Shown one piece after another: positions 1 through 800 of a DNA stretch of 800 nt. Made by a program: the position numbers and the translations under genes. This DNA comes from Escherichia coli. Lineage in GTDB: Bacteria; Pseudomonadota; Gammaproteobacteria; Enterobacterales; Enterobacteriaceae. Every line of letters begins with the position of its first letter. The first letter of the stretch is position 1. The notes under the pieces were generated by a model. It did not search any database. It worked only from the letters and a program-made list of their open reading frames with translations, and was not told where the DNA came from. The stretch lies in NCBI RefSeq assembly GCF_003334255.1, contig NZ_QOWU01000186.1, one strand, 5' to 3'.

Positions 1-800
1 CAGGTCTCGCCCAGCGTGGTGTTCACAAAGGTTTTCAGGCCGTTGGGATCTTTCAGTGCATCCAGCCAGTCATAGACAATCTGTACCCAGGTGGTGAACG
101 GACTGTACGCCGTCCAGATATGGAATGTGATGGAGCGCGGCGGCGGAATTTCATTATCCGCGGCGCTGAAAAACGTCAGACCGTCGCGGGTCCACATCCC
201 CGTGTTTTCACAGATCCACCGCCCGTTGCTCTGGTCCAGTTCAGACTGATGGATCACGCAGCCATGATGTTCACAGAGGTAGAAAACACTTTCGGGACTG
301 TCCTTCTCCCATTTAAGGCCAAAAGGCGTGGACTCATCGCCAAATTTCAGATACTGCTCCTCCCCACAGTGCGGGCAGGGCACATAAAAACGCATGAAAT
401 GTGCCGACTCGTTGGCCGCTTTTTCGATCTGGCAGGAGCCTTTTATTTTTGGCGTCGAGCCGCGAATGGATTTTGGCCATACCGAGCCCTCAATACGCTT
501 ATCCCCCAGCAGGGTTGGCGAGCCCTCTTTTTCGACATCCGGCTCGAATGAGGAAAGTTCGTCATAGCAGACCACATCCACTGATTTTTCACGGTAGTTT
601 TTGGCGGCAGCGCCGCCCAGGCACCAGAAGCCCACACCCGATGAAAAGCGTTTCAGCGTGATGGTATTATCACGATGTTTACGTCCCAGCCAGGGAGAAA
701 GTTTTTTCAGGCAGGGAACATCGCGAATCGTCGCCTCCACGTGAGACTTCATAAAATCTTCAGCGGCAGAATCCGTGGGCTGAAAAAGCAGACTGTTTCG
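1..800 (-). CDS. A: Phage terminase large subunit, lambda gpA family (DNA-packaging ATPase region); internal fragment, 5' and 3' ends both outside the window
   Basis: Seen in sequence: the minus-strand frame with codons at plus coordinates 798-800 down to 3-5 has no stop codon across 266 codons, while the other two minus frames have 16 and 10 stops. From memory: the translation aligns with lambda gpA over blocks such as FMKxHVExTIRD, HRDNTxTxKRF, GFWCLGG, AKNYREKSVDV, YDEL, EGSPTxLGDKRIEGSVWPKSIRGSTPK, HFMRF, CPHCGEEQYLKFGD, TPFGLKW, VFYLCEH, TFHIWTAYSPFTTWVQIV and KTFVNTTLGET. The start codon lies beyond position 800 and the stop beyond position 1. Confidence 0.95.
258..377 (-). other. Cys4 cluster C-x2-C-x30-C-x4-C (CPHC ... 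CEHHGC), candidate zinc-ribbon-like metal site inside the terminase
   Basis: Read directly from the translation: Cys codons at 375-377 and 366-368 (CPHC) and at 273-275 and 258-260 (CEHHGC), with His at 369-371, 267-269 and 264-266. The equivalent lambda segment as I recall it is CPHC ... CEHNAC, so the four cysteines appear conserved. Metal binding is inferred, not shown. Confidence 0.5.
453..461 (-). other. Candidate ATPase coupling motif (C-motif) G-S-T
   Basis: Minus-strand codons 459-461, 456-458 and 453-455 encode G-S-T inside the block EGSVWPKSIRGSTPK, which matches lambda gpA by recollection. Terminase large subunits carry a short Ser/Thr-rich coupling motif downstream of Walker B; the assignment is by position and family knowledge only. 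Confidence 0.4.
558..581 (-). other. Walker B-like motif with adjacent catalytic glutamate of the packaging ATPase (VDVVCYDE)
   Basis: Minus-strand codons 579-581 through 558-560 translate to V-D-V-V-C-Y-D-E, a hydrophobic stretch ending in Asp-Glu. By recollection it corresponds to the lambda gpA Walker B region (VDVAGYDE, catalytic Glu about residue 179). The motif is read directly; the functional assignment is from recalled literature. Confidence 0.6.

Follow-up and report, generated by a model that had tools for sequence, protein, structure and literature searches.

An 800-bp Escherichia coli segment lies within the large terminase gene, very probably of a lambda-like prophage with phage-21-type head genes in yecE

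We analyzed an 800-bp stretch of E. coli DNA, referred to here as the window. Frame 0 of the minus strand is open throughout, with 266 codons and no stop, and the other five frames each contain 3-16 stops across the 800 nt. The encoded protein matches the Pfam family GpA_ATPase (PF05876, E=8.9e-40) over window-protein residues 3-195, corresponding to model positions 59-247 of 247. Residues 225-266 match the start of GpA_nuclease (PF20454, E=2.5e-9), covering the first ~42 residues of that domain. We therefore identify the window as a stretch from inside a large terminase (TerL) gene of the lambda gpA type, as had originally been assumed. Its placement in the 642-aa protein is exact. Window 1-800 (minus strand) encodes residues 99-364, so the window begins at residue 99 rather than at the estimated residue 115-120. 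The part of the gene that remains upstream is 294 bp rather than about 350 bp, and 835 bp (278 codons and the stop) remain downstream. A PDB sequence search with the window protein gave no match at E<=0.001. For the full-length TerL, taken from a public record identical to the window, PHROG 15 covers residues 1-641 (E=0), and phage 21 gp2 can be aligned with it along the entire length.

TerL proteins are built from an N-terminal TerS-binding region, a translocation ATPase, a cos endonuclease and a C-terminal portal tether (PMC9026076). Of these, the window takes in the greater part of the ATPase and its border with the nuclease. We placed the TerL motifs by alignment with lambda gpA, which is ungapped to about residue 530, using the lambda motif assignment from PMC6379665. 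In lambda gpA, the Walker B sequence VAGYD is followed by the catalytic E179 (PMC6379665). The aligned sequence here is VVCYD at window 561-575, and VVCYD-E occupies residues 174-179, with the aligned catalytic glutamate E179 of the packaging ATPase at window 558-560. By the lambda lid boundaries (PMC6379665 Table 1), the ATPase lid, W327-T364, and the start of the nuclease domain fall at window 3-116. Walker A lies just outside the window in the identical record (residues 76-83, extrapolated window 846-869); it reads KSARVGYT, whereas lambda gpA has KSARVGYS with the arginine toggle R79. Two cysteine pairs, CPHC (residues 240-243, window 366-377) and CEHHGC (residues 274-279, window 258-275), occur at the same positions in lambda gpA and have a putative metal-binding role. 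Residues 212-214 (window 453-461) are GST, as they are in lambda gpA, and we take this to be the coupling 'C-motif'. All of these features are on the minus strand.

Two plus-strand candidates within the window were rejected. A 143-aa ORF with an ATG start at window 120-551 runs antisense to TerL and most likely reflects no more than the codon usage of the opposite strand, whose frame is open throughout. The sole Rfam hit in the window, a DicF-like match at 589-618 antisense to TerL, reached 20.2 bits where the gathering score is 48 (E=0.091) and is attributed to chance.

The flanks described here were read from a single identical public record, NZ_CP027340.1, and not from the window's own contig. 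In this record the locus (L001) is presented with the gene on the plus strand. The window corresponds to L001 20001-20800, and a window coordinate equals 20801 minus the L001 coordinate; features on the L001 plus strand are therefore on the minus strand of the window. The TerL gene (L001 19707-21635) is intact, with 1,929 bp and 642 codons, and its extrapolated 5' part covers window 801-1094 while its 3' end extends to -834. Along the gene strand, the order is lysis genes, cosQ/cosN/cosB, TerS, TerL, a W-like gene, portal, head genes and tail genes. Genes for a holin, a lysozyme and a lysis protein come first, followed by a 455-bp gap before the small terminase (TerS) gene at L001 19226-19735 (extrapolated window 1066-1575). 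Downstream of TerL are a W-like head-tail joining gene (L001 21619-21825, extrapolated window -1024 to -818, NCBIfam NF047331) and the portal gene (L001 21822-23414, extrapolated window -2613 to -1021, TIGR01539 portal_lambda, E=4.5e-211). Annotated beyond the portal on the same strand are an S49 protease/scaffold gene, decoration, major capsid, FI and FII genes and the tail genes; none of the head and tail genes of this record is flagged as a pseudogene. The identities of TerS, the W-like protein and the portal are backed by independent profile libraries (PHROGs, NCBIfam and Pfam), and neither TerS nor TerL was matched by any NCBIfam model. The same gene order is found in E. coli JNEC-KY204 (99.5% identical), in PhiR12_1 (99.4%), in phage 21 and in lambda.

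Given this order in the identical record, cos and TerS are to the right of the window, beyond position 800, with the portal and head genes to its left, below position 1. Both placements had been predicted, as had the orientation: the rest of the 5' end, TerS and cos are all found on the right, and the 3' end, portal and head genes on the left. The lambda order of cos, Nu1, A, W and B in one direction, from which the prediction was drawn, is also the architecture of this locus. The gene-order prediction is therefore supported, with small numerical corrections.

One of these corrections concerns TerS, which is 169 aa long rather than about 180 aa. It starts at a GTG codon, and a longer form is precluded because an in-frame TGA lies two codons upstream. 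TerS matches PHROG 57 over residues 1-169 (E=1.7e-55) and Pfam Phage_Nu1 (PF07471, E=1.4e-18) over residues 49-150, in line with central oligomerisation and C-terminal TerL-binding regions homologous to those of Nu1. The N-terminus was missed by both the Pfam Nu1 model and the PDB sequence search, which returned only chance matches for TerS (E>0.7). A model of full-length TerS (mean pLDDT 64) had no significant match in a fold search. Therefore, the N-terminal 58 aa were folded alone. The second-best Foldseek match of this TerS 1-58 model (pLDDT 87) was 1J9I, the gpNu1 DNA-binding domain, with a TMq of 0.61, a probability of 0.72 and a non-significant E of 0.46. Most of the other top matches were MerR-type or excisionase-type winged-helix DNA-binding domains, and the lowest E-value of the search, 0.35, was likewise non-significant. 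As a separate observation, the N-terminal model also resembles 6hlk (TMq 0.68, non-significant E=1.6), a structure deposited with the 'Hijacking the Hijackers' study, whose subject is E. coli pathogenicity islands able to redirect packaging by their helper phages.

The cos site lies upstream of TerS. The sequence GGGCGGCGACCT, an exact copy of the lambda cohesive-end 12-mer, was found at L001 19031-19042 (extrapolated window 1759-1770, minus strand), 184 bp before the TerS start. It occurs once in the 40.8-kb locus, and the chance expectation for this cosN 12-mer in 40.8 kb is 0.28 even with one mismatch allowed. Upstream of cosN, 26/32 bp match the lambda right end, and the cosQ and I2 flanks of cosN are lambda-like. 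The matching bases include GGGTCCT at -30 to -24 relative to cosN (extrapolated window 1794-1800, minus strand), where cosQ reportedly lies (Wieczorek and Feiss 2001).

On the other side of cosN, a repeat search identified cosB-like R repeats at extrapolated window 1616-1721 (minus strand). The repeat CATGTCCGGTT occurs at +50 in forward orientation and at +108 and +138 in inverted orientation, and a forward variant, CATGACCGGTT, at +145 overlaps the inverted copy at +138. No further copy of CATGTCCGGTT was found in the 40.8-kb locus outside cosB. The described layout of cosB is R3-I1-R2-R1 with R2 inverted (PMC9026076). The three R-like repeats, which are predicted TerS sites, follow that layout and the phage 21 annotation, and the R3-like and R2-like repeats occupy the positions annotated in phage 21. 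Between these two repeats (L001 19097-19137) is an AT-rich spacer in which no match to the IHF consensus WATCAANNNNTTR was found with up to one mismatch allowed. In both lambda and phage 21, by contrast, a single IHF (I1) match is present at +74 to +79.

The original prediction had also called for att sites or tRNA flanks to be examined in order to distinguish a prophage from a free phage. Short-word BLAST located an 11-bp att core, TTAACTGCGTG, at 4337791-4337801 and 4385546-4385556 of NZ_CP027340.1 (L004 ~12792 and L003 ~3647), inside a split yecE; an exact 12-mer search had yielded none, as the core is 11 bp. The core sits in a 19/23-bp imperfect repeat. Because the att cores lie 47,755 bp apart at the two junctions, the element is a 47,755-bp (47.8-kb) prophage in yecE, with cos near its middle. 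At one end, an excisionase gene and a tyrosine integrase gene (4384214-4385527) abut yecE (DUF72), with yecN and cmoAB beyond. The other end carries tail fibre genes, a gene with a YadA C-terminal domain, a DinI-like gene and a 96-bp 5' fragment of yecE, followed by yecD and aspS. A tRNA scan of the 40.8-kb locus found none, and the locus thus has neither a tRNA flank nor tRNA cargo. Some Stx phages are known to insert in yecE. Accessory cargo had been expected outside the window, and indeed the window is wholly within the TerL ORF. The accessory candidates are all elsewhere: a SASA-family esterase gene downstream of Q and genes for a PerC-family regulator, an adenine methyltransferase and the YadA-like protein. 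In the annotation of the identical record, the interval from Q to the esterase lacks stx.

These observations make it very probable that the window is an internal TerL piece of a lambda-like cos temperate phage with phage-21-type head genes, resident as the 47.8-kb yecE prophage. The TerL gene and its arrangement are already known and ordinary.

An alternative source for the window is the genome of a free PhiR12-type phage, virion or lytic, which would have the same gene order and lack att junctions. Among 50,697 phage records searched by megablast, the best matches to the window are five PhiR12 phages, PhiR12_1, _2, _2_star, _4 and _5 (PV340549-PV340554), all at 99.4%. These entries, submitted as complete phage genomes with laboratory hosts, are 52-54 kb long; our comparison covered the window, the cos region, TerS and the gene order. 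Their 251-bp cos region is 100% identical to that described here, their TerS is 99.4% identical and their gene order is the same. A literature search did not find their source publication. However, the sole 100% match over 800 bp is chromosomal, in E. coli 2015C-3121 (NZ_CP027340.1 4361174-4361973) among 5,426 complete E. coli genomes, while each PhiR12 record has about 5 base differences over the 800 bp. In addition, the PhiR12_1 record has an integrase near one end, a prophage-like layout. We therefore regard a free-phage origin as unlikely.

A second alternative is that this TerL segment survives in isolation from a decayed prophage in which TerS, the portal or both have been lost. Such remnants do occur. 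One decayed relative, in TB06052 (NZ_CM129848.1; L010 3992-5870), has a 5'-truncated TerS and a 3'-truncated TerL joined directly to part of a tail-tip gene and is a real case of an isolated terminase remnant. An IS66-family element, ISEc8, lies inside the cos-to-portal block of three records (H57, H59 and H60; strains MA11, 117 and 136), and in one of them it breaks the TerL gene into separately annotated pieces. Against a remnant at our locus, the identical record has an intact 642-codon TerL and a full head and tail set free of pseudogene flags, with TerS and the portal present as predicted. Of the flanking patterns that would have contradicted the prediction, the isolated terminase fragment is seen in TB06052 and not at the identical match.

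Among the 5,426 complete E. coli genomes, 2,047 have some match to the window, and the 4.4-kb cos-to-portal block is covered to 80% or more in 1,854. Counted by record, 1,857 reach this coverage of the block, as compared with 1,930 that reach it for the window, a further point against a remnant. Besides the identical chromosome, six more E. coli records match the window at 99.3-99.5%, and the next best differ at 4-5 bases. A decayed remnant is very improbable as the source of the window.

In the intact yecE prophage that we favor, the gene order, domains and sites are those read from the record, and the biochemical steps can be sketched by analogy with lambda and phage 21. TerS would bind the cosB repeats and position TerL, which would then nick cosN at positions 12 bp apart. 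TerL would subsequently dock on the portal and translocate DNA into the prohead using ATP.

A separate observation is a swapped module outside the window (L001 19073-19788, extrapolated window ~1013-1728), made up of cosB, the TerS gene and the ~27 codons with which TerL begins. Counting from cosN, the initial 41 bp are 97.6% similar to phage 21; about 717 bp with no similarity follow, and similarity returns at 94.4% from L001 ~19789 to the end of the portal gene. The module has no DNA similarity to phage 21 or to lambda. Across the first 100 residues of TerL, identity to phage 21 rises from 8/25 to 23/25, a gradient consistent with the N-terminus of TerL being the known partner of the TerS C-terminus (PMC9026076). 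The R core is CATGTCCGG here and CATGTCGG in phage 21. Neither the TerS DNA-binding domain nor the R sequences, the features by which phage 21 packaging specificity is assigned, are like those of phage 21.

In 1,141 of the 5,426 complete E. coli genomes, about a fifth, the module is covered to at least 80%; among phage records, it is found only in the five PhiR12 phages. We also observe that the breakpoint ~83 bp into TerL (L001 ~19789) recurs in many E. coli genomes. Those with the recurrent breakpoint, including Nissle 1917, ST131 and HS13-1, combine phage-21-like TerL, W and portal with another small subunit. The packaging specificities that have been tested are those of lambda, 21 and N15/Monarch (PMC4669245, PMC9026076). 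Therefore, the module may represent a further specificity, distinct from these three and exchanged as a unit at the TerL breakpoint, and we consider the arguments for and against this proposal to be evenly balanced.

For the window itself, these results have little meaning beyond correct annotation. They place an 800-bp fragment reliably in a lambda/21-type packaging operon, and inference from lambda gene order works here. The wider interest is limited to the cosB/TerS specificity module, which lies outside the window and is swapped relative to phage 21. Packaging specificity sets which helper phage can mobilise which co-resident prophages or islands, and the swapped module is found very commonly among E. 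coli prophages, with Shiga-toxin-producing strains among their hosts.

When compared with named phages, the closest studied relative of this TerL by sequence is phage 21 gp2 and not lambda gpA, which had served as the original reference. Phage 21 gp2 is identical at 587/642 aa overall and at 250/266 (94%) in the window, whereas lambda gpA is identical at 417/641 (65%) overall and at 190/266 (71%) in the window. At the DNA level, identity to phage 21 is 94.4% over the stretch that begins near TerL codon 28 and runs through the portal gene. Its W-like protein and portal are identical at 66/68 and 519/530 residues, and genes 2, 3 and 4 have the same order and lengths as here. The small subunits diverge: phage 21 gp1 is 182 aa long, as compared with 169 aa for TerS here, and 53/169 residues are identical. 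In the megablast search of the 50,697 phage records, phage 21 and its relatives matched the window at 89.3%.

The proposal that the packaging module is literally that of lambda, with Nu1/A and the lambda cosB, draws on the shared gene order, an identical cosN and nearly identical cosQ and I2, but it is almost certainly wrong and is refuted at the level of sequence identity, given that lambda, too distant for megablast, is missing among the 22 hits to the window, that TerS matches Nu1 at only 57/167 residues (34%), and that CATGTCCGGTT is unrelated to the lambda R sequences. What the two have in common is the architecture alone. The order and orientation of lambda cos-Nu1-A-W-B are the same as here, and cosQ GGGTCCT lies at the same distance from the identical cosN 12-mer. 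The TerS and TerL genes overlap by 29 bp here and by 26 bp in lambda, and the Walker A, Walker B, E179 and lid positions of lambda gpA are kept in TerL without gaps.
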